From positions 281,319 to 345,318 of the forward strand of contig CBFHKH010000001.1 of assembly GCA_965656375.1 (NCBI GenBank): DNA of 64,000 bases, in the 5' to 3' direction. Both the position numbers and the translations under genes were made by a program. The DNA is from Minisyncoccia bacterium (GTDB lineage: Bacteria > Patescibacteriota > Minisyncoccia > Phycocordibacterales > UBA9973). The stretch's first letter is position 1, and each line of letters begins with the position of its first letter. Positions 3,631 to 13,806 of the stretch are shown one piece after another. The notes under the pieces were generated by a model, which was given only the letters and a program-made list of their open reading frames with translations, had not been told where the DNA came from and did no database searches.

Positions 3631-4023
3631 ATGCTTTTAGTAAAAACAAAAATCGGTCCAAGTGAAATTCATGGAACAGGGCTCTTTGCAGATCAATTCA
3701 TACCCAAAGGAACAGTAACATGGGAGTGGAACGAAACATTCGATGTTGCGTTTGATGAAGAAGCAGTCAATTCCCTTCCTCCGCTTCAGAAAGCATACAT
3801 ACTCTATTATGCATACTTGGATAAAGAGCTTGGTAAGCTTATCCTTTGTGGTGATAGCCAGCGCTATATAAATCATTCTCGGGAGACAAATATCGATTCC
3901 TCACCTCGCAAAGATGTTGCAAGTAGAGATATACAACCTGGTGAAGAATTCCTTTGTAATTACAATCTTTTTGATAACACGTACTTTAGTCGAATCGGCC
4001 TCGACGAAAGCACACTTAAATAG
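3631..4023 (+). CDS. small SET-domain protein (putative protein lysine methyltransferase)
   Basis: GTGLFA..., INHSRETN (NHS motif) and ELxxNY elements of the SET fold; 130 aa. Confidence 0.6.
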   Translation: MLLVKTKIGPSEIHGTGLFADQFIPKGTVTWEWNETFDVAFDEEAVNSLPPLQKAYILYYAYLDKELGKLILCGDSQRYINHSRETNIDSSPRKDVASRDIQPGEEFLCNYNLFDNTYFSRIGLDESTLK

Positions 4024-4621
4024 CGTTTTTTATTTTTTGATAGATTCTTTTTCTCCACAAGAGAATCGTCAATGATCCATTAATTAGGAGAAGGTATAGA
4101 GCATAGATCCAATCTTTTTCTTCAAGAGTAAACCAACTACTGATAGCAACGACATTTAAAATACTTGAAATAGTTTCAAGGAGCCATGCATTGGGATCTT
4201 CTTCTTCAGGCCTCAAATAGGATTTCTGTATTGTTGGTACGAGTCCAATAAAATCAACAACAATGCTACCGATAAAGCCAATAAGCGGAGAATTGAAAAT
4301 AAGCCACAAGAGACAGGATCCTATTGCGCCACACAAACAAATTTTATCTAAAAGAGAAAACCTATCACCAGACCCATATTTCAGTGAAAGTAATGCTAGG
4401 ATAAATGGTCCGATCACATATGCTGCTTGAATCCAGATATTCTCATACAGATCAAGAGACAGTGAGCTTGAGAGTATTATTGCTCCTACAAGCGTAAGTA
4501 TCCACCATGTGGATCTGCTAGGCTTTGTTGAGCCTTTAAATATAGAAATGATGTATACGATGTATGCTGAAAATGAAAGAATTCCTGCAATCATTCCCAA
4601 ATTATCGATCAAGAAATCCAT
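4016..4621 (-). CDS. hypothetical polytopic membrane protein (about 6 TM)
   Basis: hydrophobic segments throughout; no recognisable motif. Confidence 0.5.
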   Translation of the reverse strand: MDFLIDNLGMIAGILSFSAYIVYIISIFKGSTKPSRSTWWILTLVGAIILSSSLSLDLYENIWIQAAYVIGPFILALLSLKYGSGDRFSLLDKICLCGAIGSCLLWLIFNSPLIGFIGSIVVDFIGLVPTIQKSYLRPEEEDPNAWLLETISSILNVVAISSWFTLEEKDWIYALYLLLINGSLTILLWRKRIYQKIKNAI

Positions 4622-4623
4622 AC

Positions 4624-4764
4624 TTATTGGACTCCTGCTTCATTGGCTGAAGAATTAATTACGGGGAAGTCTTTTATGGTGATATAGCGATGATATGTTA
4701 CAAATGCAGAAGCAAGTATTGCAATCAAGAATATTCCGATCAATACTTTAGATTTTTTATCCAT
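4624..4764 (-). CDS. possible 46-aa single-TM small membrane protein (MDKKSKVLIGIFLIAILASAFVTYHRY...)
   Basis: short ORF not in the supplied track (<60 aa); fills the gap between neighbouring genes; one TM helix. Confidence 0.3.
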   Translation of the reverse strand: MDKKSKVLIGIFLIAILASAFVTYHRYITIKDFPVINSSANEAGVQ

Positions 4765-4829
4765 ATGATCAAGTATACTATGCTTTTATATGATTGCAAA
4801 AGAGTAGTATTTTCTGTAGTATACGAATT

Positions 4830-5720
4830 ATGGCAACATCAATTTTAAATGAAACGAAAGTAGAAAATGCAGATGTAGTGATTGTAAGTGCAGCATATGA
4901 AAAAACTGCAAGCTCAAGAAAAGGTACTGTGCATGGTCCAAAGGCGATACTAAACTGTCTTAATACGAAACTTGAATTTTTCGATCGGACATACAAAAAA
5001 GAAGTGAATGCATTTGTAAAGATAGGGCAAAAAGATCTCGGAAAAATCAGTAGCCTAACTCCTGAGCGGGCACTCAAAAAGATAGCTGATGAATGCGAGA
5101 AATTGGTAGCGCAAGGTAAATTCGTCTTTCTCTTGGGCGGTGAGCATTCAGTGTCTCTCGGACTTTTTCAAGCACTTTCCAAGCATATTGATCCGAAGGA
5201 TACGACAATAGTGCAGATAGATGCCCACTGCGACCTTCGTGATACTGACGCTGACTATAGCGATCATCCATCGAGATATGCTCACTCATGCGTACTCCAC
5301 CGTGGAAACGAACTCGGCTACAAGCTTATCCAAGTCGGTATTCGAACCTATTCCATCGATGAGTATAATTATTTTTCTGACCCAAAGAACAATATCACTG
5401 TATATGAATGGGGCAATGGCAATAAAATCCCAAGCATTGATGAGATATTGAACGGTATTACTACAAAGAATGTATACCTCACTATCGATGTTGATGGTTT
5501 TGACCCTGCCTATATGCCAGGAACCGGTACGCCTGTCCAAGGCGGACTCGAATGGTGGTACGGTATGGAACTTGTGCAAAGACTCTCGAAAGAAAAAAAT
5601 CTCATCGGTGCTGATATCGTTGAGGTCTCCCCTATGCGCGATTCAGTTTTAACTGAATACGGCGCAGCACAGCTTGCATATACTATTATTGCAAATAAAT
5701 TCAGCAATAGACTAAAATAA
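4830..5720 (+). CDS. speB: agmatinase / ureohydrolase (arginase family)
   Basis: GGEHSVSLG, VQIDAHCDLRDT, DVDGFDPAYMPGTGTP Mn-binding motifs of the arginase/agmatinase family; start placed at MATSILNE rather than the upstream in-frame ATG. Confidence 0.8.
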   Translation: MATSILNETKVENADVVIVSAAYEKTASSRKGTVHGPKAILNCLNTKLEFFDRTYKKEVNAFVKIGQKDLGKISSLTPERALKKIADECEKLVAQGKFVFLLGGEHSVSLGLFQALSKHIDPKDTTIVQIDAHCDLRDTDADYSDHPSRYAHSCVLHRGNELGYKLIQVGIRTYSIDEYNYFSDPKNNITVYEWGNGNKIPSIDEILNGITTKNVYLTIDVDGFDPAYMPGTGTPVQGGLEWWYGMELVQRLSKEKNLIGADIVEVSPMRDSVLTEYGAAQLAYTIIANKFSNRLK

Positions 5721-5764
5721 AAAGGCTTGTTATAAGAACAGGCCTTTTGAACTATAAATTTATA

Positions 5765-6475
5765 CTATGTTTCTATTTTCCTTGCTTTATTCATGCCTAC
5801 TCCTATCAAATAGCAGAATATCGAAGCAATTGCACCGGAAATAATTATTGATTGCATCTCACTGATACTAAAAAACCATCTTCCAGTAGTATGTGTCATA
5901 CTGCAAATACAAATGATCAAAACCGTGCTAATTATATTCCTAATAATATAAGGAACTTTCTCTATTAAGCCATACATTACTGCATTAAGGAGTGCCATTA
6001 GCAATAGGAGTTTGAGAATATCAAAGTAGAGTTTAGGACCCCATGCTTTGGCAAATGAGGAATCATCTTTATCTTCTATGTATACACGATCAAGTTTATA
6101 AACTTTGAATTCCATCTCTTTCCAATCAATGTGATATCCAGTTTCTAAATATGTACTTCTTTTGTATGGCCCAACAAGCAGATATGCTTTATTTTTTAGT
6201 AGTTCCACTTTAACGGCCTTTGAACTAATTACAAATGAGTCCTCGCCTCTGAATAACACCTGCTTGTAGTAATAAGGGTCGCTCAATCGGTCGGGTACAG
6301 ACATTACTTTTACAAACACAAGTGTATCCTTTCCTACAGCTTTATAAACCAAAATTGATTTTTGGTTAGAGCCTGGTGAAAGATAAAAGCCATTTTTTGC
6401 CTTAGCAAGCGGGGTTTGGGTATATCCTAAACTCAATATAAAGAGGAAGGATATGGTGGTCATAAATTTTTTCAT
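5765..6475 (-). CDS. hypothetical secreted/membrane protein (signal peptide, extracytoplasmic domain, C-terminal TM helices)
   Basis: N-terminal MKKFMTTISFLFILSLGY signal; hydrophobic C-terminus. Confidence 0.5.
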   Translation of the reverse strand: MKKFMTTISFLFILSLGYTQTPLAKAKNGFYLSPGSNQKSILVYKAVGKDTLVFVKVMSVPDRLSDPYYYKQVLFRGEDSFVISSKAVKVELLKNKAYLLVGPYKRSTYLETGYHIDWKEMEFKVYKLDRVYIEDKDDSSFAKAWGPKLYFDILKLLLLMALLNAVMYGLIEKVPYIIRNIISTVLIICICSMTHTTGRWFFSISEMQSIIISGAIASIFCYLIGVGMNKARKIET

Positions 6476-6540
6476 GATTTAGTTTTAAATTGGTTAAAAA
6501 TTTTGCATATTTGCTCTAAAAGCCCATGCAGCCCTTAGAG

Positions 6541-6577
6541 CAAATAACAAAATACAACCAAAGCAATTTGGTTGTAT
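6541..6577 (-). terminator. intrinsic terminator downstream of the DHS-like gene
   Basis: stem atacaacca/tggttgtat followed by T-run on the minus strand. Confidence 0.5.
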
Positions 6578-6604
6578 TTTGTCACATATTAATATGTCCG
6601 TCAA

Positions 6605-7624
6605 CTAGGAGATATATTTTGCAATCAACTCATTTGCTTCTTTTGGATTTGCTTTACACTCGAGAAGTGCTGTAAGCATGAGCGGCGCTACGATGGTAGC
6701 ATCTGATTCGATAACGAACATCGGGGTATCCTTTGTGAGTTTATCCCATGTGATCTTTTCATTTGGAGTCGCGCCTGAGTATGAACCATAGGAAGTGGTA
6801 GAGTCAGAAATCTGGCAGAAGTATGCCCATGGCTTTGCTTCCTGTTCCATATCGTACTTAAGCGATGGAACTACGCAGATCGGAAAATCTCCGGCAATAC
6901 CGCCACCTATCTGGAAGAATCCGATCCCCTCTTCTTTTGAAAGCTGTTGATATTGATCATAGAATGCGCCCATGTACTCAATGCCGCTTTTTGCAATAGA
7001 CGCACTCGCATCGCCATGCTTCACATGAGAAGCAAAGATATTTCCAAATGTTGAATCTTCATATCCTGGCACTACCATTGGAATATTATTCTCAGCTGCA
7101 GCAAGGAGCCAGCACTCCTCGGCCTTACCTTCATGTTTTTCCTTATCAAGAGTCTGAATTAAATCATAAAAGTATTCATGCCAGAATTTGCGAGTGCCAT
7201 CCTTGGTAGCTTGTTCCCATACTGGCACAATGTGTTTCTCAACAGCACGGAATGCTTCGTCCTCTGGGATACTTGTATCTGTAACACGACGCATACGATT
7301 CTCGAGGATCTTCGTATCATCTTCCTTTGTAAAATATCTGTAATCAGGGAAATCCTTGTACGAATCATGAGCGACAAGGCGGAAAAGCGATTCTTCTAGA
7401 TTCGCACCGGTAACAGACATACCATGGATAAGTCCTGCACGAATTGCGGGGGCAAGGACAATACCAAGCTGGGCTGATGACATAGCTCCTGCTACTGCCC
7501 AAAACATCTTGCCTCCTTTCTCTGCATGTCGCCAATATGCGATGAGTGCATCGCGTGTTGCGCGAGCATTAAAGTTCTTGTAATTCTTGAGCACAAATTC
7601 TAATGTAGGAAGATTGTTATTCAT
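6605..7624 (-). CDS. deoxyhypusine synthase-like protein (bacterial DHS-like homospermidine synthase type)
   Basis: length and motifs of the DHS family (GMSVTGANLEE, NAD-binding Gly-rich stretches, GGGIAGDFP). Confidence 0.7.
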   Translation of the reverse strand: MNNNLPTLEFVLKNYKNFNARATRDALIAYWRHAEKGGKMFWAVAGAMSSAQLGIVLAPAIRAGLIHGMSVTGANLEESLFRLVAHDSYKDFPDYRYFTKEDDTKILENRMRRVTDTSIPEDEAFRAVEKHIVPVWEQATKDGTRKFWHEYFYDLIQTLDKEKHEGKAEECWLLAAAENNIPMVVPGYEDSTFGNIFASHVKHGDASASIAKSGIEYMGAFYDQYQQLSKEEGIGFFQIGGGIAGDFPICVVPSLKYDMEQEAKPWAYFCQISDSTTSYGSYSGATPNEKITWDKLTKDTPMFVIESDATIVAPLMLTALLECKANPKEANELIAKYIS

Positions 7625-7659
7625 AGTTATAGTATATCACTTATAATATAGGCTTCACA

Positions 7660-7743
7660 AATTATATCCTGAAAAAAGTCCTCGGATCTCCTCGCACTAA
7701 ATTCTTAGAGGAGCGAGGCCAGACTATTTTTCAGGATATAATT
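7660..7743 (+). repeat. palindromic intergenic element, copy A (terminal inverted repeats tatatcctgaaaaa/tttttcaggatata; inner cctcgc/gcgagg)
   Basis: about 90% identical to the reverse complement of 13838-13913. Confidence 0.8.
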
Positions 7744-7753
7744 TATTTCGCTC

Positions 7754-9133
7754 TTACCAGCCAAAATTTTTCCCAACATCATCAGGAGTTTCTCTTTTAC
7801 GAGATACTACGATGTGTCCGTTTTCTGCGATCAATTTGAGTGGCGATGAAAGCATGCAGTGGTGAGCTGCGAGTGGATCTTGATACGCACCGGTGTCATA
7901 CACCACTATATACATTGGTTGGCCACTTGCGCTATCATAATCAGGTAAAGTCACTGTGCCATTGACTCCTGTGTAAATATCGTCAGAATCGCAACTCGAT
8001 CCAGCAAGCCAGACGTCATTGAGATCTGCATCATGTTTGTTGTTCGCAGGAGAAATCGCCCATTTTTGACCGATAGCCCATGTATCGAGAAGATCATTCA
8101 TGAAGCTTCCATCAATCACGTACCATTTCTTTGCTGGACTCTTTTTATTTTTAATTTCCTTTGTATCAATAATCTTGAACACTGTGATCTGGGCTGGTGC
8201 CACAATATAGCGCCCCCATTCACATACAAGATTCGGATGCGGAAGGCCCCGCTTTTCGGACTCCTGTTTAATAAGTTTAAATATTTTTTCCATGAGCTTG
8301 TCTACCGGATAGCTCTTGTTGCGAGTATATGGGATTGGCATTCCACCGCCGATGTCGATTGTATCGAGTGATGGATTCTTTTCTTTAATCTTGAAATAAA
8401 CATCAAGAGCATACTTTACCGGACCAAGGACATCAGAAAGCTTCTCAATTTGAGATCCAATATGGTAATGGAGAATTTTAAGGTTTTTAAATGACCCCAT
8501 GTCGATGATCTCTTTCGCAGAAAATCCAAATCGATCGATCGGCTTATTCCAGTGTGAACTTGCTTTGATTGGCATATCAAGGCGTATACCGACATCATAT
8601 TTTGAATATTGGAGGAACTTCAACTCATTTGGTCCTTCAATAAGTGGAAAAATCTTAACTCCTTTATGCTGAAGATCATCAATAAGTGATATATATTTGT
8701 CAGTCTTTGGACCAGAACAAAGAATCCGGATATTTGGATTGAAAGTCTCCTGCTCAAGCATTTTCTTAACAAGCCAAAGATCATTATATGAGGAAGTTTC
8801 AAGATGCGCACCTTCACCGACGATCGCCATCACCACTTCTTTATTTTGATTTACTTTCATCGGATAGTGGTAAAAGAATTTACCTTGATATCCAACTTTC
8901 TTTGAGAGATCTTTAGCAAGATCAAGAAAATCTTCCAGGCGTTCCTCGATAACAAACGGCATGAGTATTTCAAGCGATGTTCCAAATTTTTCCGCCATGT
9001 AGCGAACGTTATAAATATTGTGACCTTCTTTTATGATAAGGTCACCTTCCTTGTTGAAGTCAAAATATTGAGTGTTGAATTCCTTCGCACCTATCTTCCA
9101 AAGCTTCTTTGAAGCCACAGAACGTTTAGTCAT
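7754..9133 (-). CDS. PLP-dependent fold-III decarboxylase (arginine/ornithine/diaminopimelate decarboxylase family); arginine decarboxylase proposed from context
   Basis: HYHIGSQ, GGGMPIPY, CDSDD motifs characteristic of alanine-racemase-fold decarboxylases; adjacent agmatinase. Confidence 0.65.
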   Translation of the reverse strand: MTKRSVASKKLWKIGAKEFNTQYFDFNKEGDLIIKEGHNIYNVRYMAEKFGTSLEILMPFVIEERLEDFLDLAKDLSKKVGYQGKFFYHYPMKVNQNKEVVMAIVGEGAHLETSSYNDLWLVKKMLEQETFNPNIRILCSGPKTDKYISLIDDLQHKGVKIFPLIEGPNELKFLQYSKYDVGIRLDMPIKASSHWNKPIDRFGFSAKEIIDMGSFKNLKILHYHIGSQIEKLSDVLGPVKYALDVYFKIKEKNPSLDTIDIGGGMPIPYTRNKSYPVDKLMEKIFKLIKQESEKRGLPHPNLVCEWGRYIVAPAQITVFKIIDTKEIKNKKSPAKKWYVIDGSFMNDLLDTWAIGQKWAISPANNKHDADLNDVWLAGSSCDSDDIYTGVNGTVTLPDYDSASGQPMYIVVYDTGAYQDPLAAHHCMLSSPLKLIAENGHIVVSRKRETPDDVGKNFGW

Positions 9134-9235
9134 CTCTTTTTACCAAGCAACTCTCGTGCCTGTAATAAAATAATAATAAAGTCATAATAGCAAACTGAGA
9201 GGATATGTAAATAGAGAATCCATGTATTGCAAATC

Positions 9236-9272
9236 TATACTAAAAATGGCCTGCGTATTACCGCAAGCCATT
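9236..9272 (-). terminator. intrinsic terminator downstream of the 428-aa ORF
   Basis: aatggcctgcg/cgcaagccatt hairpin followed by T-run on the minus strand. Confidence 0.5.
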
Positions 9273-9282
9273 CTAATAAAAC

Positions 9283-10569
9283 TTAACATATCTCTGCATA
9301 AATTGTATGACTATTGCCATGCAGACGACCTGAATTTACTTCGTGTGAATCTATGGAGAGGCATTCTCTGTGCCCGCCAATCCACTTTGAAACTCCATTC
9401 ACCGTTGCAATAAAGACCCGATCAATATACGCATAGGTATGTTGGTCCATTTCATTTACTAATTGCGGCGCTTCGTGTTCCGGTTGCAATATATATGAAC
9501 CACGACTACGCATATTTTGCCGCAATTTTTTACGAAAGTTTCCGTCATTCAAAGAACCAGATATATGTCCATAGCAACCGAAAGTACCTTGAATTGGTTT
9601 AGCACGAATTCTCTTTTCAGTACCGTTAATTGATAACAATGAATCTATACCTGCGATTTCTAAATACTTAGAAAACTCACTCAGATACATAAGGCTTGCT
9701 TCGTCTTTCACTTCAAACCCCATACCCATAAGCGGCAGATATCTTTTTGTATCATTAATTCTTCGTTCATCAGTTTCTTGCCAGGCTGGATTATCAACAT
9801 TAAATGTAATGCTGTATTCCTTTATGATGCGTCTGATGGCAGAATCACTTAACAAGGGATGTTCTACTACTGTCTCGGGGCGCTTCAGCTTTTCAATTGG
9901 GTCGGATGAACGAACATACAGGAGATAACCACACTTTCCGCCATTCGACGAAAGATGTTGCAGGAACTCATCAGGCCCAAAGAATGCATCGAAACCTGAA
10001 AGATGCAGAACTTCTTCGTCAGATATGCTATCTTCTGAGCCTTTGCCGAATTCTGCTGCTTTCATAGCAACATATTTTTCCTTGGTAACTGCAAGAAGTG
10101 CGATAGGAAGGCTGTGCTTCGTACGCAAATCCTGCATCATTAATTTTGTCTCCTTGCTATACAAGGTAGACTGATTATCCGTTTCGCACGCTTTGGAAAG
10201 TAATTGATACAGTGCCCAATTATTCTCCATTTCAAATATTCGGCGTTTTAAAATTGTTTGCACTTCTTCAATCTTCATTATGGCCAATTCATCAAGCAAC
10301 TCGCTTGGTAAACCACACATGTCAATCTGTACAATCCAATTTATCGGATTACCATTTTGGTAGCAGTACCTGTAATCAGTCGGCCATTCACGGTTCGCTT
10401 TCACGAGTGAACCAAAAGCCTTGTTACATTCATCGTATATCTTACAAAGCGCATCAGTAACTACCTGAGGATACTTTACTTGATAATCGTTGAATGAATA
10501 CGTTGGTGAAAGCGAGGACTGTATAATTCCTGTTGTCACGCTAGAGTTTAATGGATGTTTCATTTTCAA
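9283..10569 (-). CDS. hypothetical 428-aa soluble protein, function unknown
   Basis: long ORF with strong coding look; no motif I can assign with confidence. Confidence 0.6.
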   Translation of the reverse strand: MKMKHPLNSSVTTGIIQSSLSPTYSFNDYQVKYPQVVTDALCKIYDECNKAFGSLVKANREWPTDYRYCYQNGNPINWIVQIDMCGLPSELLDELAIMKIEEVQTILKRRIFEMENNWALYQLLSKACETDNQSTLYSKETKLMMQDLRTKHSLPIALLAVTKEKYVAMKAAEFGKGSEDSISDEEVLHLSGFDAFFGPDEFLQHLSSNGGKCGYLLYVRSSDPIEKLKRPETVVEHPLLSDSAIRRIIKEYSITFNVDNPAWQETDERRINDTKRYLPLMGMGFEVKDEASLMYLSEFSKYLEIAGIDSLLSINGTEKRIRAKPIQGTFGCYGHISGSLNDGNFRKKLRQNMRSRGSYILQPEHEAPQLVNEMDQHTYAYIDRVFIATVNGVSKWIGGHRECLSIDSHEVNSGRLHGNSHTIYAEIC

Positions 10570-10661: not shown

Positions 10662-11738
10662 CTAAATTCCCTCTTCTTTAAGTCTCTCTAACGCTTCTTT
10701 TGATTTCTTGGAAAGTTTTTTTGGCATCTCGATCTGTATACGGAGAATGATGTCACCTCGGCCGCGTGAAGATGGTACACCCTTGCCACGTACTCGAAGC
10801 AGTTCTCCATGATTAATTCCTTCAGGAATCTTTACTTCGACTATATTGCCTTCAAGAGTTTTCAAATCATATTTCATTCCGAGAAGTGCATCAGTAAGTT
10901 TGATAGGTAGATCCATTGTGAGATTTAATCCATCGCGTCTAAATGTTGGATGCACTCGTACATTGACTTTAATATACAGATCCCCAGCTTGGCCTCCTTG
11001 GATAGCTTCACCCATACTGGTCATGCGAAGCATTTCCCCTGCATTGATTCCTGCAGGAATTTTAAGTTCTATTTCTTCTTGTTTGTTGCGAACACCCTTA
11101 CCAGCACACTCCGTACATTTCTCTGAAGGAATCTTTCCATTTCCATGACAAACGTCACAAACCCGTCTTGATTCAAATGAACCAAGTATAGAACGCTTCA
11201 TTTCACGAATCTGGCCATTACCATTGCAAGTCTTGCACGTATCCATCTTGACACCAGGCTTGCCACCAGTACCTTTACAAATATCGCACACTGACTGTTT
11301 AGATAGTAAAATTGTTCGTGTCACACCGAATATTGATTCTTCAAAGGAAAGATCTATTTCCGTCGAAATATCCCTGCCACGGCGTGCTTGTTTGCTACTT
11401 CGCCCACCTCCAAAGAAATCGCCAAAAATATCTCCAAGATCACCCATGTCGAACTCTACACCACCGTTCTGAAACCCTGAAAAATCAAATCCTCCAAATC
11501 CACCTTGCGCACCTCCGTTGAATCCTTGTGGACCATCTGCACCAAAGCGATCATACTGCGCACGCTTCTGGTCATCTGAAAGGGTTTGGTATGCCTGGTT
11601 TACTTCCTTGAACTTCGAATCATCACCCTTGTTCTTATCAGGGTGGTATTTGTGTGCGAGCTTATGATACGCCTTTTTAAGCTCATCTTTCGATGCACCT
11701 TTTTGTACTCCAAGTATTTCGTAATAATCTTTTGACAT
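10662..11738 (-). CDS. dnaJ: chaperone DnaJ
   Basis: J-domain with HPD (KYHPDKN), G/F-rich linker, four CxxCxGxG zinc-finger repeats. Confidence 0.95.
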
Positions 11739-11780
11739 ATTTTATATTATACACACTAACGTATATCAACACCCTAATAT

Positions 11781-11902
11781 CGTACTTCAGTAAAATAGCT
11801 CCTCTCATAGGACACGCGTAAAATTCTGCTGAATTTTCTGCTCCGCTCGACTCCGTCGAGCCTGCGCGAGTTCCTGCTCAAGGACTATTTTACTTTTGTA
11901 CG
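11781..11902 (-). repeat. palindromic intergenic element, diverged copy C, between dnaK and dnaJ (terminal IRs cgtacttcagtaaaatag / ctattttacttttgtacg)
   Basis: shares the AGTCCT...CTCGC...aaattctg...gagcg core with copies A/B. Confidence 0.55.
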
Positions 11903-11913
11903 AAAACTTGAAT

Positions 11914-13806
11914 TTATTTTTGTTCTGGATTCTCGTTTACTTCAGCGTCTTTGATTTCTTCTGCCTGTTGTTCTGCAGTTGTACTTCCTTCTGGAGTTGT
12001 TCCTGCTTTTTGCATTGCTTCACCGATCTTCGATACTTCAGCAGTAAGAGCTTCAAGTGCGGATTTAATTGCGGTAATGTCTGTTCCTTCTTTTGCAGTT
12101 TTTACTGCAGCAATTTTCTCTTCTACACTTGTTTTAAGAGTCGCATCGATTTTATCTCCGTATTCTTTCAATGATTTCTCAGCTGAGAATATCATCATTT
12201 CTGCTGTATTCTTCTCATCGACAAGTTCTTTTTTCTTTGCATCTTCATCAGCATGAGCGACGGCTTCATCTTGCATGCGCTTAATATCTGCATCTGTAAG
12301 ACCAGATGATGCTTCGATACGGATTGATGATTCTTTACCTGATGCTTTATCTTTCGCTTTTACGTTGAGGATACCATTGGCATCGACATCAAATGTTACT
12401 TCAATCTGTGGCATACCACGTGGTGCTGGTGGAATATCACCAAGAATAAATCTTCCAAGTGATTTGTTGTCAGATGCCATTGGTCGCTCACCTTGAGTGA
12501 TGTGGATCTCTACAGAAGTTTGATTGTCAGCTGCCGTTGAGAATACCTGGCTCTTTGAGCTTGGAATAGTCGTATTACGCTCTACAAGCTTTGTAGCGAC
12601 TCCACCAAGTGTTTCTATACCAAGCGAGAGCGGAATAACATCAAGAAGAAGCACATCTTTTACATCTCCCTGGAGAACTCCTGCCTGAACTGCAGCACCA
12701 AGCGCTACAACTTCATCTGGGTTAATTGAACGGTTTGGTTCTTTGCCGCCAAAGAGCTTCTTGACTGCCTCTACAATCGCAGGCATGCGTGTTTGTCCAC
12801 CCACCATGATAATCTCATTGATTTCGTTCATTTTGAATGGTGATGCTTCCATTGCTCGTTTTGTAATCTCGATAGAACGAGTCACATACTCTTCAGCTAG
12901 AGTTTCAAGCGTTGCACGTGTCATTTTAAGCAGCAAATGCTGTGGACCTGCATCTGTTGATGTTATGAATGGGATGTTGATTTCTGTTTCTGGTGTAGTT
13001 GAAAGCTCAATTTTTGCTTTTTCTGCCGCTTCATCAAGACGCTGGAGGGCAAGTGGATCTTTCGTTACATCTACACCTGATTGCTTTTTGAATTCATCAG
13101 CAATCCAATTGATAATTTTTTGGTCAATATCACGACCTCCCATGTGTGAATCTCCATCTGTTGATTTCACTTCAATAACATCATTTGAAACTTCAAGTAC
13201 TGATACATCGAACGTACCACCTCCGAAGTCATACACAACGATCTTCTCATCTTTCTTTGTGTTGAATCCATACGCAAGAGCTGCTGCTGTCGGCTCATTG
13301 ATGATACGCTTCACATCAAGACCTGCAATCTGACCAGCATCCTTAGTTGCCTTACGCTGTGCGTCATTGAAATATGCAGGTACCGTAATGATTGCTTCTG
13401 TGATCTTCTCACCAAGTTTTGCTTCGACATCAGCCTTGATCTTTGAAAGGATCATTGCTGATACTTCTTCTGGTCGATACCACTTATCACCAATATTTAC
13501 TTCTGCTCCACCATCTTTACCTTTCTGAATTTTGAATGGTGCAGTTTTTTGAGTCTTTTGGATTTCTGGATCTTCGAACATGTGACCCATGAATCGCTTG
13601 ATACCGTAGATCGTATTTTGGGGATTAGTCACCGCCTGACGCTTCGCAAGAAGACCAACTAATCGATCACTATTCTTACCGATTGCCACAATTGATGGCG
13701 TTGTACGCTGACCTTCGATATTCTCAATAATTTTTGGCTGACCACCTTCAATGATGGCAACTGCACTGTTTGTTGTACCTAAATCTATTCCTATTATTTT
13801 TGACAT
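11914..13806 (-). CDS. dnaK: chaperone DnaK (Hsp70)
   Basis: [18 protein letters not shown], and full-length Hsp70 architecture. Confidence 0.97.

Follow-up and report, generated by a model that had tools for sequence, protein, structure and literature searches.

The bacterial homologues of deoxyhypusine synthase (DHS) assayed so far, termed SpeY or CdmS, all condense two molecules of agmatine into N1,N9-bis(guanidino)homospermidine (G44G, "diagmatine") (PMC10981699, PMC13625781). CdmS of Thermus thermophilus uses only agmatine and does not consume putrescine, and G44G is then converted to homospermidine by a ureohydrolase (PMC10981699). Accumulation of G44G in E. coli without speB was reported for six further SpeYs from different phyla and for the T. 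thermophilus control, but not for eukaryotic DHS or bacterial homospermidine synthase (HSS), and the SpeB homologues associated with SpeY hydrolyzed G44G and not agmatine (PMC13625781). Two putrescines are joined by HSS, which is no homologue of DHS, and the SpeY and HSS routes were described as mutually exclusive, since a true agmatinase would starve SpeY (PMC13625781). The same three gene types as in the locus described here, among them a short "ancestral" arginine decarboxylase (ADC) of the alanine-racemase (AR) fold, form a cluster in Winogradskyella (PMC13625781).

The window, a 64,000-nucleotide stretch of a Patescibacteria genome, probably encodes an agmatine-dependent "diagmatine" route to sym-homospermidine, leading from arginine through agmatine and G44G to homospermidine (probability about 0.7). 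Direct observation covers the gene identities, catalytic residues, phylogenetic position and conserved linkage of a real core module of three genes, for a short SpeA-type ADC, a DHS-fold protein and an agmatinase-family ureohydrolase. All five open reading frames (ORFs) of the locus were found together with the motifs quoted for them in the initial annotation (Table 1), and the domain E-values of those with family matches were far beyond chance. The three enzyme-family assignments made there held on domain and motif evidence, as did the notion of a compact module leading from arginine to homospermidine. The order it gave, arginine to agmatine to putrescine to homospermidine, is at odds with the published SpeY/CdmS biochemistry (PMC10981699, PMC13625781), and its premise that bacterial DHS-like proteins make homospermidine from two putrescines is wrong, the putrescine enzyme being the non-homologous HSS. 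Its alternative suggestion, action of the DHS-like enzyme on substrates derived from agmatine, fits better, with a precedent that is bacterial and not only archaeal.

Table 1. Features of the locus (positions in the window)
Feature	Position	Strand	Remark
Agmatinase-family Mn ureohydrolase, 296 aa	4830..5720	+	PF00491; convergent with minus-strand genes
Predicted secreted/membrane protein, 236 aa, guest gene	5765..6475	-	ORF
DHS-fold, SpeY-like enzyme, 339 aa	6605..7624	-	PF01916
SpeA-like ADC, short (459 aa), AR fold	7754..9133	-	PF02784 + PF00278
Promoter-like hexamer pair TTTACA-16-TATTAT with TG	9184..9211	-	Consensus match only; in 149-bp gap upstream of decarboxylase gene
Predicted ATP-grasp-like ligase, guest gene	9283..10569	-	428-aa ORF from TTG start; database protein 426 aa
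dnaJ	10662-11738	-	Syntenic anchor upstream of module
dnaK	11914-13806	-	Syntenic anchor upstream of module; dnaJ-dnaK span 10662..13806

In the proposed mechanism, the short SpeA-like pyridoxal phosphate (PLP) decarboxylase would convert L-arginine to agmatine. The divergent SpeY/CdmS-type enzyme would then oxidize one agmatine by means of tightly bound NAD. The 4-guanidinobutyl unit, held at Lys295 as an imine, would pass to a second agmatine at its primary amine, and reduction would yield G44G. The Mn ureohydrolase would finally remove both guanidino groups to give homospermidine and 2 urea, so that the "agmatinase" would act last in order and putrescine would be no obligatory intermediate. 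We infer the substrates and products of these enzymes by analogy with the assayed SpeY systems.

The decarboxylase contained both AR-fold decarboxylase domains of Pfam, the PLP-lysine context YPMKVNQ and the motifs HIGSQ, GGG and CDSDD, and its top matches were biosynthetic ADC/SpeA (NCBIfam NF003763, 182 bits; PDB 3nzq, 103 bits). Compared with E. coli SpeA it lacked about 100 residues (382-481 of the SpeA chain), which agrees with the "ancestral AR-fold ADC" form without the four-helix bundle. The initial annotation had named a diaminopimelate decarboxylase (DAPDC) of lysine synthesis as the contrary outcome; its coincidental placement beside the other two genes is extremely improbable. The lysA model did reach 132 bits along the whole length, the C-terminal 160 residues alone gave 36 bits to DAPDCs versus 20 to SpeA, and the R-x-R-E-T tail is common to the decarboxylase and DAPDCs, but the overall score was higher with the SpeA models (182 and 162 bits). 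The specificity residues are also of the SpeA and not the DAPDC type, with SpeA-like C-D-S-D-D in place of the C-E-S-(G/S)-D present in all five DAPDC alignments shown, and with Asp and Ile in place of DAPDC Arg344 and Tyr348 inside the SpeA-type D-x-W-x-I-x-Q.

The DHS-fold protein, referred to as DS, matched the Pfam DS profile from position 10 to 286 of 288 (E = 6e-38), as expected for the full-length homologue annotated initially. Its identity to CdmS and CsSpeY was only about 25%, with BLAST scores of 79 and 71 bits, respectively, compared to 46-57 bits for eukaryotic DHS/HSS. In a neighbor-joining (NJ) tree (309 columns, 200 bootstraps) the DS subfamily, on a long branch and with no more than two references each for SpeY and the archaea, grouped with CsSpeY and CdmS at 99.5% bootstrap, apart from archaeal and eukaryotic DHS; CsSpeY is an orthologue of the genetically characterized Anabaena SpeY and itself no assayed protein. 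Residues D190, GGG240-242, E289, W293, K295 and D308 were invariant, the catalytic Lys, Glu and Trp and the NAD-binding residues being invariant throughout the alignment, and G46, "TGAN", S191, Q271 and an insertion after GGG were common to DS and SpeYs.

Both spermidine-binding Asp of human (Hs) DHS were replaced. Five pocket positions were conserved within the subfamily and unlike both reference SpeYs: Hs K287 was Gly, H288 Asp (Asn in SpeY), D243 Asn (Phe/Met in SpeY), D316 Tyr (Leu in SpeY) and D313 Tyr. Since these residues differ from those of characterized SpeYs, the substrate or product could differ. DS scored below the cut-off of all seven NCBIfam DS-family equivalogs, including the curated SpeY models NF001980 (102 bits, cut-off 450) and NF002699 (70 bits, cut-off 500), whereas CdmS and CsSpeY each passed their own model. 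It was 83-94% identical to other Paceibacteria homologues, and identity remained at 84-86% in genome comparisons where CysRS, DnaJ and the sigma factor shared 43-69%; the subfamily also takes in archaeal members. Judged by sequence, DS is part of a separate, very conserved lineage with a pocket altered relative to the characterized SpeYs.

Such a lineage might make a related but different product instead of plain homospermidine, from another amine acceptor or another aminobutyl/guanidinobutyl donor. The altered pocket and the failure of the subfamily in both curated SpeY models point that way, as does relative P0244, in which the DS domain is fused with a methyltransferase domain of NNMT/PNMT type and with an AdoMet_dc domain, a hint of additional chemistry in some branches of the lineage. 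This is unlikely, however, as the conserved partners are exactly the G44G-route genes (an ADC of either fold and an Arginase-family hydrolase) and nothing else, and no variation occurs at the Glu (CdmS E293, Hs E323) put forward as the guanidino-binding residue.

The high conservation of DS between genomes and the archaeal members would also suit a protein modifier, which would attach a guanidinobutyl or aminobutyl group taken from agmatine to a protein lysine, in EF-P for example, the agmatinase-like enzyme then trimming the adduct. The model is aIF5A of Haloferax volcanii, where the DHS gene clusters with an essential agmatinase-like gene and deoxyhypusine formation dependent on agmatine was put forward (PMC5178350). 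Such a role is very unlikely here: a/eIF5A is absent from Bacteria, neither efp nor any other candidate target was linked to DS in any of the seven CPR contexts, His288, Asp243 and Asp316 are missing, DS groups with the small-molecule SpeYs and not with archaeal/eukaryotic DHS, and every bacterial homologue tested gave a free polyamine.

The ureohydrolase matched Pfam Arginase (E = 1e-62) and carried the motifs GGEHS, DAHCD and DVDGFDP, with metal ligands invariant across five partner homologues (CPR, Euryarchaeota and Pseudomonadota), whose alignment favors ATG at 4830 as the start over the upstream TTG at 4794. It scored 98-108 bits against agmatinases, with 3pzl, 3lhl and 7lol as best PDB matches, and about 58 bits against formiminoglutamases, the family named initially as evidence to the contrary. 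It also exceeded the cut-off of the agmatinase equivalog TIGR01230 (220.5 versus 174.3 bits). That score and the agmatinases as nearest solved structures would suit the route of the initial annotation, in which the agmatinase makes putrescine and the DHS-like enzyme joins two putrescines, or putrescine and another amine, to homospermidine, and a DS pocket unlike those of assayed SpeYs makes a change of substrate conceivable. The putrescine route is nevertheless improbable, because no DHS-fold bacterial enzyme is known with two putrescines as substrate, CdmS leaves putrescine untouched, all assayed SpeYs need agmatine, the putrescine enzyme HSS is non-homologous and its route described as exclusive of that of SpeY, and DS groups with the SpeYs. 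For the diagmatine route, we infer by analogy (PMC13625781) a preference of the ureohydrolase for G44G over agmatine, which sequence cannot tell.

Related Paceibacteria keep the three genes as neighbors, the arrangements numbering at least three. An ADC gene lay within three genes of DS in 7/7 CPR contexts examined, and an Arginase-family gene adjoined DS in six of these, while on the P0143 contig none was found within 5 kb. The order dnaK-dnaJ-(variable guest)-ADC-DS was seen again in L062, L090 and the P0143 contig. In a euryarchaeote and a proteobacterium, DS relatives at 42-48% identity were AdoMet_dc::DS fusions adjoining Arginase-family genes, a neighborhood that mirrors the known speDA-speY-speB clusters (PMC10407285) and gives Rosetta-stone support for the agmatine route. 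Survival of the decarboxylase gene's linkage to the DS and Arginase genes through rearrangements, and the SpeD-type decarboxylase filling the same slot in other lineages, argue further against a DAPDC.

The remaining two genes had been listed in addition to the pathway genes in the initial annotation. Linkage across related loci indicates that they are guests and not conserved members: insertions in a conserved dnaK-dnaJ-ADC-DS-agmatinase block, outside the pathway. The 428-aa ORF is real, with an identical 426-aa protein on record from an 840-kb contig. Searched by sequence, it matched nothing in Pfam, NCBIfam or PDB. Its fold is ATP-grasp-like: in Foldseek the AF2 model (pLDDT 90.9) came closest to 3n6x, a "putative glutathionylspermidine synthase" (E = 1e-5, TM 0.45), with (homo)glutathione synthetases, DcsG and Ddl ranking next. 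Among 58 genomes with homologues, these stood beside polyamine genes only in L001, and in 49 of the 58 loci an ArgE/DapE-type M20 deacylase gene followed about 77 bp downstream; this partner is absent from the window. The N-terminus of the 236-aa protein resembles a signal peptide, and hydrophobic segments lie toward its C-terminus. It had no family match in Pfam or NCBIfam and no homologue in the fetched loci at E ≤ 1e-5, and related genomes have DS immediately beside the Arginase gene, this gene missing between them. The promoter-like pair is of a kind found 28 times in the region against 27.4 expected from shuffling and so weak evidence; if functional, it could allow transcription of ADC and DS independent of the 428-aa gene.

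Compared with known systems, bacterial HSS (EC 2.5.1.44; PDB 4TVB) is likewise NAD-dependent and has the end product proposed here, but it differs from DS in its non-homologous, carboxyspermidine dehydrogenase-related fold, its putrescine substrate and the lack of G44G, and nothing resembling HSS was found in the region. Eukaryotic and archaeal DHS (EC 2.5.1.46; PDB 6XXJ, 7cmc) share with DS the PF01916 fold, the K, E, W, GGG and D framework and, as predicted for DS, the NAD-dependent lysine-imine mechanism. Unlike them, DS lacks the N-terminal extension, has His288, Asp243, Asp316 and Lys287 replaced and belongs to bacteria, which are without the eIF5A substrate; it scored only 28-38 bits against solved DHS structures, compared with 94-125 bits for CdmS. 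The speDA-speY-speB clusters of CPR (Peregrinibacteria), DPANN archaea, Marinimicrobia and Armatimonadota (PMC10407285) also combine SpeY with an agmatine-producing decarboxylase into a homospermidine module in small-genome uncultivated lineages, and the nearest non-CPR relatives of DS are the AdoMet_dc::DS fusions described above, but the window decarboxylase is a PLP-dependent AR-fold enzyme, not a pyruvoyl SpeD derivative, and the genes in the window are separate and unfused.

T. thermophilus CdmS (caldomycin/G44G synthase, TTHA1570) with TtSpeB (PMC10981699) shows the same pairing of a DHS fold with a ureohydrolase. The Lys (K299 in CdmS, K295 in DS), Glu (E293 and E289) and Trp are conserved, and both proteins have lost the human D243/D316 acidic pair and carry the TGAN motif and the insertion after GGG. 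Identity is only 26%, however, CdmS passes NF002699 at 545 bits, and it has F, L, K and N at N195, Y282, G245 and D246 of DS. The Winogradskyella algicola cluster (PMC13625781), compared by description, likewise combines an ancestral AR-fold ADC, short, SpeA-like and without the roughly 100-aa four-helix bundle, with SpeB (diagmatine ureohydrolase) and SpeY, and the same chemistry is predicted for both. In contrast to W. algicola, the host of the window has a genome of roughly 0.84 Mb, and its DS belongs to a separate lineage. The pathway itself is already known from these recent descriptions, and the module from a tiny CPR/Patescibacteria genome would be a divergent new example of it.

All five ORFs claimed in the initial annotation were recovered at their coordinates, and the motifs quoted for them (DAHCD, DVDGFDP, HIGSQ, GGG, and CDSDD) were visible in the translations. 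Close relatives of the window carry the labels Paceibacteria, Nomurabacteria, or Patescibacteria. The regional base composition was unremarkable, and the promoter and terminator scans for operon structure, with counts at or below the shuffle expectation, were uninformative. A SET-domain protein gene, found here in a CPR genome, shares 8 bp with the terminal part of a multi-pass membrane protein gene whose product was without a family match. The features discussed are listed in the table.

Coordinates of features in the window and in the fetched loci (prefix L).
Feature	Location	Strand	Length	Remarks
SET-domain protein gene	3631-4023	+	130 aa	PF00856, E = 1.9e-11
Multi-pass membrane protein gene	4016-4621	-	201 aa	
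Agmatinase-family ureohydrolase gene	4830-5720	+		PF00491, E = 1e-62; TIGR01230, 220.5 bits (cut-off of 174.3 passed)
Membrane-type ORF	5765-6475	-	236 aa	
DHS-fold (DS) protein gene	6605-7624	-	339 aa	PF01916, E = 5.8e-38, profile positions 10-286 of 288
SpeA-like decarboxylase (ADC) gene	7754-9133	-	459 aa	PF02784, E = 5e-21; PF00278, E = 5e-5; PLP Lys, HIGSQ, and GGG motifs present
Putative ATP-grasp-like ligase ORF	9283-10569	-	428 aa	
dnaK-dnaJ part of dnaK-dnaJ-ADC-DS block	10662-13806			
DS match in closest relative	L001:1666-2367			tblastn
Example of ligase-deacylase unit	L037:11389-12477			
Example of ligase-deacylase unit	L001:4112-5182			
PAD_porph ORF	L090:8200-8355		51 aa	agmatine deiminase family
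Lone DS-subfamily gene, Gemmatimonadota	L065/L066:6001-6975			
AdoMet_dc (SpeD-like)::DS fusion P0243	L067/L068:6001-7410		469 aa	Arginase-family gene adjoins
AdoMet_dc (SpeD-like)::DS fusion P0255	L072:6001-7362		453 aa	Arginase-family gene adjoins
DS-subfamily gene of L069	L069:6001-6954			

The match of the DS protein to PF01916 is full-length, and its score was below the cut-off in all seven NCBIfam equivalogs of the DS family. Among the curated SpeY models, NF001980 ("homospermidine biosynthesis protein"), the best of the seven, gave 101.6 bits against a cut-off of 450 and NF002699 gave 70.4 against 500; the curated DHS equivalogs TIGR00321, NF002006, NF002294, NF002630, and NF003052 gave 60-92 bits against cut-offs of 304-434. 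The controls, Thermus thermophilus SpeY (CdmS) and a cyanobacterial SpeY (CsSpeY), passed their own models with 545 and 588 bits, respectively. Solved DHS structures were matched weakly by the DS protein (28-38 bits), compared to 94-125 bits for CdmS against the same structures. By BLAST, CdmS scored 79 bits, CsSpeY 71 bits, and eukaryotic DHS and homospermidine synthases (HSS) 46-57 bits; the reference sequences came only from the supplement of PMC10981699 and from PDB alignments. HMMER, run exhaustively over 50%-identity representatives, returned 206 clusters at E ≤ 1e-30, and every examined full-length match (at least 300 aa) resembled the window protein more closely than it did any of the references. 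None of ten subfamily representatives tested reached an NCBIfam cut-off. Judged by these scores, the lineage is a distinct, uncurated subfamily, and because the NCBIfam models miss it, "deoxyhypusine synthase family protein" is the only annotation that its genes receive.

In a neighbor-joining tree (309 columns, 200 bootstraps), to be read with its few references, distance method, and long subfamily branch in mind, the subfamily was recovered at 100%, grouped with CsSpeY at 82%, and with CsSpeY plus CdmS at 99.5%. Two archaeal DHS (7cmc and 8put) and the eukaryotic DHS/HSS fell outside this group. In the column analysis, all of 29 subfamily sequences had D190, G240-242, E289, W293, K295, and D308, corresponding to D238, GGG282-284, E323, W327, K329, and D342 of human DHS (Hs). 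K295 is the catalytic Lys (CdmS K299), E289 is the guanidino- or amine-binding Glu (CdmS E293), and the GGG and Asp residues belong to the NAD-binding set. Common to the subfamily and the SpeYs only are Gly at Hs105, TGAN at Hs131-134, Ser at Hs239, and Gln at Hs305, as well as an insertion that follows the GGG loop. The spermidine-site residues His288, Asp243, and Asp316 of human DHS are not kept, being D246, N195, and Y282 in the DS protein; both spermidine-binding Asp are thereby lost. The latter two positions are non-acidic in the SpeYs as well, with different residues (Phe/Met and Leu in CdmS and CsSpeY, those of CdmS being Phe204 and Leu286). The subfamily has conserved pocket changes of its own, Hs K287 to Gly, H288 to Asp (Asn in SpeYs), and D313 to Tyr. 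We conclude that the DS protein probably works like a SpeY, although it belongs to neither curated SpeY family, and we infer its exact substrates. Given the remodelled pocket, a different coupling product is conceivable and, in our estimate, unlikely.

The initial annotation gave the joining of two putrescines as the established activity of bacterial DHS-like proteins. This is incorrect. The two-putrescine enzyme is HSS, of unrelated fold. T. thermophilus CdmS used agmatine only, not putrescine or spermidine, with N1,N9-bis(guanidino)homospermidine (G44G; caldomycin or diagmatine) as product, which a ureohydrolase turns into homospermidine (PMC10981699). Six further SpeYs from diverse phyla, together with the T. 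thermophilus SpeY control, led to G44G accumulation in agmatinase-deficient Escherichia coli; no such accumulation was seen with DHS from human or plant or with HSS from bacteria (2026 JBC, PMC13625781). The same study found that SpeY-associated SpeB homologues hydrolysed G44G and not agmatine, and called the SpeY and HSS routes mutually exclusive. In the seven proteins scanned (3631-10569, all five ORFs included), no HSS- or carboxyspermidine-dehydrogenase-type fold was found, and PF01916 was the sole polyamine-synthase-type match. As the most probable explanation we propose a route from arginine through agmatine and G44G to homospermidine, to which we assign a probability of about 0.7: the ADC would convert arginine to agmatine, the SpeY-like enzyme would couple agmatine to G44G in an NAD-dependent reaction through an imine on K295, and the ureohydrolase would convert G44G to homospermidine. 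The putrescine route of the initial annotation is improbable.

The ADC carries the two domains (PF02784 and PF00278, PLP barrel and C-terminal sheet) of the alanine-racemase-fold decarboxylases that act on basic amino acids, and its top family and structure matches are biosynthetic arginine decarboxylases. It passed neither the SpeA nor the lysA models of NCBIfam, scoring 182 bits for NF003763 (cut-off 369), 162 for TIGR01273 (624), and 132 for lysA (298). TIGR01273 and NF003763 are built on the SpeA form of about 630 aa with a four-helix insert, and the window protein is without it: its alignment to E. coli SpeA skips from chain residue 382 to 481, so that the insert of about 100 residues is absent, like in the "ancestral" short form. 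Structure matches gave 103 bits for E. coli SpeA (3nzq) and 79 bits for diaminopimelate decarboxylases (DAPDC). The C-terminal 160 residues alone scored in the opposite order (DAPDC 36 bits versus SpeA 20 bits). The window protein has C-D-S-D-D as SpeA, compared to C-E-S-(G/S)-D of DAPDC in 5/5 alignments shown, and Arg344 and Tyr348 of the Mycobacterium tuberculosis DAPDC align with Asp and Ile inside a D-x-W-x-I-x-Q motif common to SpeA. The DAPDC identity was rejected on these specificity residues, with the C-terminal domain still DAPDC-like in overall score, and a coincidental DAPDC neighbor is extremely improbable. Robust clustering with DAPDC, set beforehand as grounds for abandoning the polyamine assignment, was not seen, the specificity positions being of the SpeA type.

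For the ureohydrolase, the homologue alignment favors the ATG at 4830 as the start. The binuclear-Mn ligands H118, D143, H145, D147, D232, D234, and E277 (308-aa ORF numbering) are complete and invariant. The protein was below the cut-off of the formimidoylglutamase and arginase models; with these family models failing and agmatinase structures matching best, a formiminoglutamase or arginase identity was rejected.

Gene linkage was compared in seven CPR contexts (the window, L001, the L059-61 and L062-64 types, L089, L090, and the contig of P0143). The ADC gene lies no more than three genes from the DS gene in 7/7, and an Arginase-family gene adjoins it in six, the P0143 contig having the ADC only. 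At least three arrangements were found, ADC>DS><Arg, DS><Arg<DUF192<ADC, and dnaK>dnaJ>ADC>DS>Arg; since orientations differ between contexts, the association has been kept through rearrangement. The dnaK-dnaJ-ADC-DS block is syntenic in several Paceibacteria, e.g., L062 and L090. In L090, a single Paceibacterota contig, the Arginase-family gene is followed about 1 kb downstream by a short ORF that matches PAD_porph and may be left over from the pathway's alternative iminohydrolase branch. In L001, the closest relative, the DS match spans only 234 of 339 residues, which could reflect either truncation of the gene or divergence of its N-terminal portion. The Gemmatimonadota DS-subfamily gene, which lies downstream of an Amidohydro_3 gene, is a solitary one that has neither an ADC nor an Arginase-family gene within 6 kb, so not every member of the subfamily shows the partner linkage.

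In relatives, the positions between dnaJ, ADC, and DS are taken by other unrelated genes (a 254-aa ORF, DUF6624, and DUF192), and in the window by the gene of the 428-aa putative ligase; the ligase and membrane-protein genes are therefore best seen as guests of a variable block rather than as pathway members. Neither product matched a Pfam or NCBIfam family. The AF2 model of the 428-aa protein (pLDDT 90.9) is confident, and its fold may be of the ATP-grasp-ligase type; the structure search ranked 3n6x, a "putative glutathionylspermidine synthase," first (E = 1e-5, TM 0.45), ahead of glutathione and homoglutathione synthetases, DcsG, and Ddl. The family is widespread in CPR (375 matches), and its candidacy as a fourth module member was rejected, as among 58 genomes homologues adjoin polyamine genes only in L001. 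There, the putative ligase and deacylase genes sit as an inserted pair that separates DS from ADC and runs on the opposite strand. In 49 of 58 loci from many CPR lineages, the ligase homologue is followed downstream, after about 77 bp, by an ArgE/DapE-type M20 deacylase gene, with which it makes up a conserved unit of two genes; this partner, present in L001, is absent from the whole window, whose copy has had it lost or relocated. Module membership of the 236-aa membrane protein was likewise rejected, no homologue being found in any fetched locus.

The DS protein retains 83-94% identity across the top 120 database clusters. Between the window and syntenic L062, identity was 84% for DS, 80% for ADC, 69% for the sigma factor, 61% for DnaJ, 52% for agmatinase, and 43% for CysRS; in comparison to L059, it was 86% for DS, 65% for agmatinase, and 50% for ADC. 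As read from these identities, the DS enzyme is under unusually strong constraint and its partners have different histories; the discordant ADC and agmatinase values suggest that the partners of a core enzyme that itself evolves slowly have been replaced or transferred. This combination is the main reason for keeping the reading of a functionally different branch in view. The remodelled pocket (G245, D246, N195, Y279, and Y282) and the 84-86% identity where housekeeping proteins reach 43-69% would in that case mark a third DHS/SpeY branch with a different acceptor, not a plain G44G synthase. The acceptor could be a protein lysine (EF-P-type, a hypusine-like modification from agmatine) or a non-agmatine amine; we regard such a branch as rather unlikely. 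Modification of a protein by the DS enzyme, after the model put forward for aIF5A of Haloferax (PMC5178350), is very unlikely. By eye, no efp or IF5A gene was recognized among the ORFs of the 64-kb window, and the annotation of related loci shows none close to the DS gene. The alternatives to the agmatine-G44G route had no positive support other than the pocket differences and the high DS conservation.

Outside CPR, relatives with 42-48% identity are AdoMet_dc::DS fusions adjoining Arginase-family genes in a marine euryarchaeote and a proteobacterium; the taxa carrying such fusions are marine Euryarchaeota and one Pseudomonadota MAG. Since SpeD homologues clustered with speY are arginine decarboxylases (PMC10407285), the fusions lend Rosetta-stone support to the view that the DS lineage acts on agmatine. 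No description of SpeDA-SpeY fusions was found in the literature examined. A 756-aa relative (P0244) on a 2.5-kb metagenome contig is a triple fusion of AdoMet_dc, an NNMT/PNMT-type methyltransferase, and DS. DS-subfamily genes 40-50% identical to the window protein are also borne by 16 IMG/VR viral contigs (up to 97 kb), amid dense co-directional small ORFs; the loci concerned were L069-L071 and the IMG/VR loci L073-L088. Two neighboring ORFs matched PHROGs of unknown function. No DS-like gene was found in deposited phage genomes, and a 2023 survey reported no SpeY/DHS homologues from viruses (PMC9992855).

Should the prediction be correct, a complete three-enzyme arginine-to-homospermidine route is kept by a large group of Patescibacteria that are ultra-small and depend on hosts; with the DS protein among the most conserved of its neighborhood, this would point to homospermidine or diagmatine as physiologically important there. 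Genome-scale models of these bacteria should not infer putrescine from an "agmatinase" neighboring a DS-fold gene. The agmatine-dependent pathway would extend to a third, sequence-divergent SpeY lineage, which marine archaea and proteobacteria carry in the form of decarboxylase::SpeY fusions and which is also present on viral contigs.

In the literature search, no paper tying Patescibacteria to homospermidine was found, and PMC13625781 is without mention of Patescibacteria. Clusters of the speDA-speY-speB type are already described from CPR, DPANN, and further uncultivated lineages (PMC10407285). The three gene types of the window are those of the Winogradskyella algicola cluster (PMC13625781), in which an "ancestral" alanine racemase (AR)-fold ADC without the four-helix bundle of about 100 aa accompanies SpeB and SpeY. 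The pathway and the SpeY clusters of CPR and DPANN organisms are thus already published; what is new is the recognition of a separate, highly conserved Paceibacteria DS lineage that is paired with an AR-fold ADC of the short form and that the curated models overlook.
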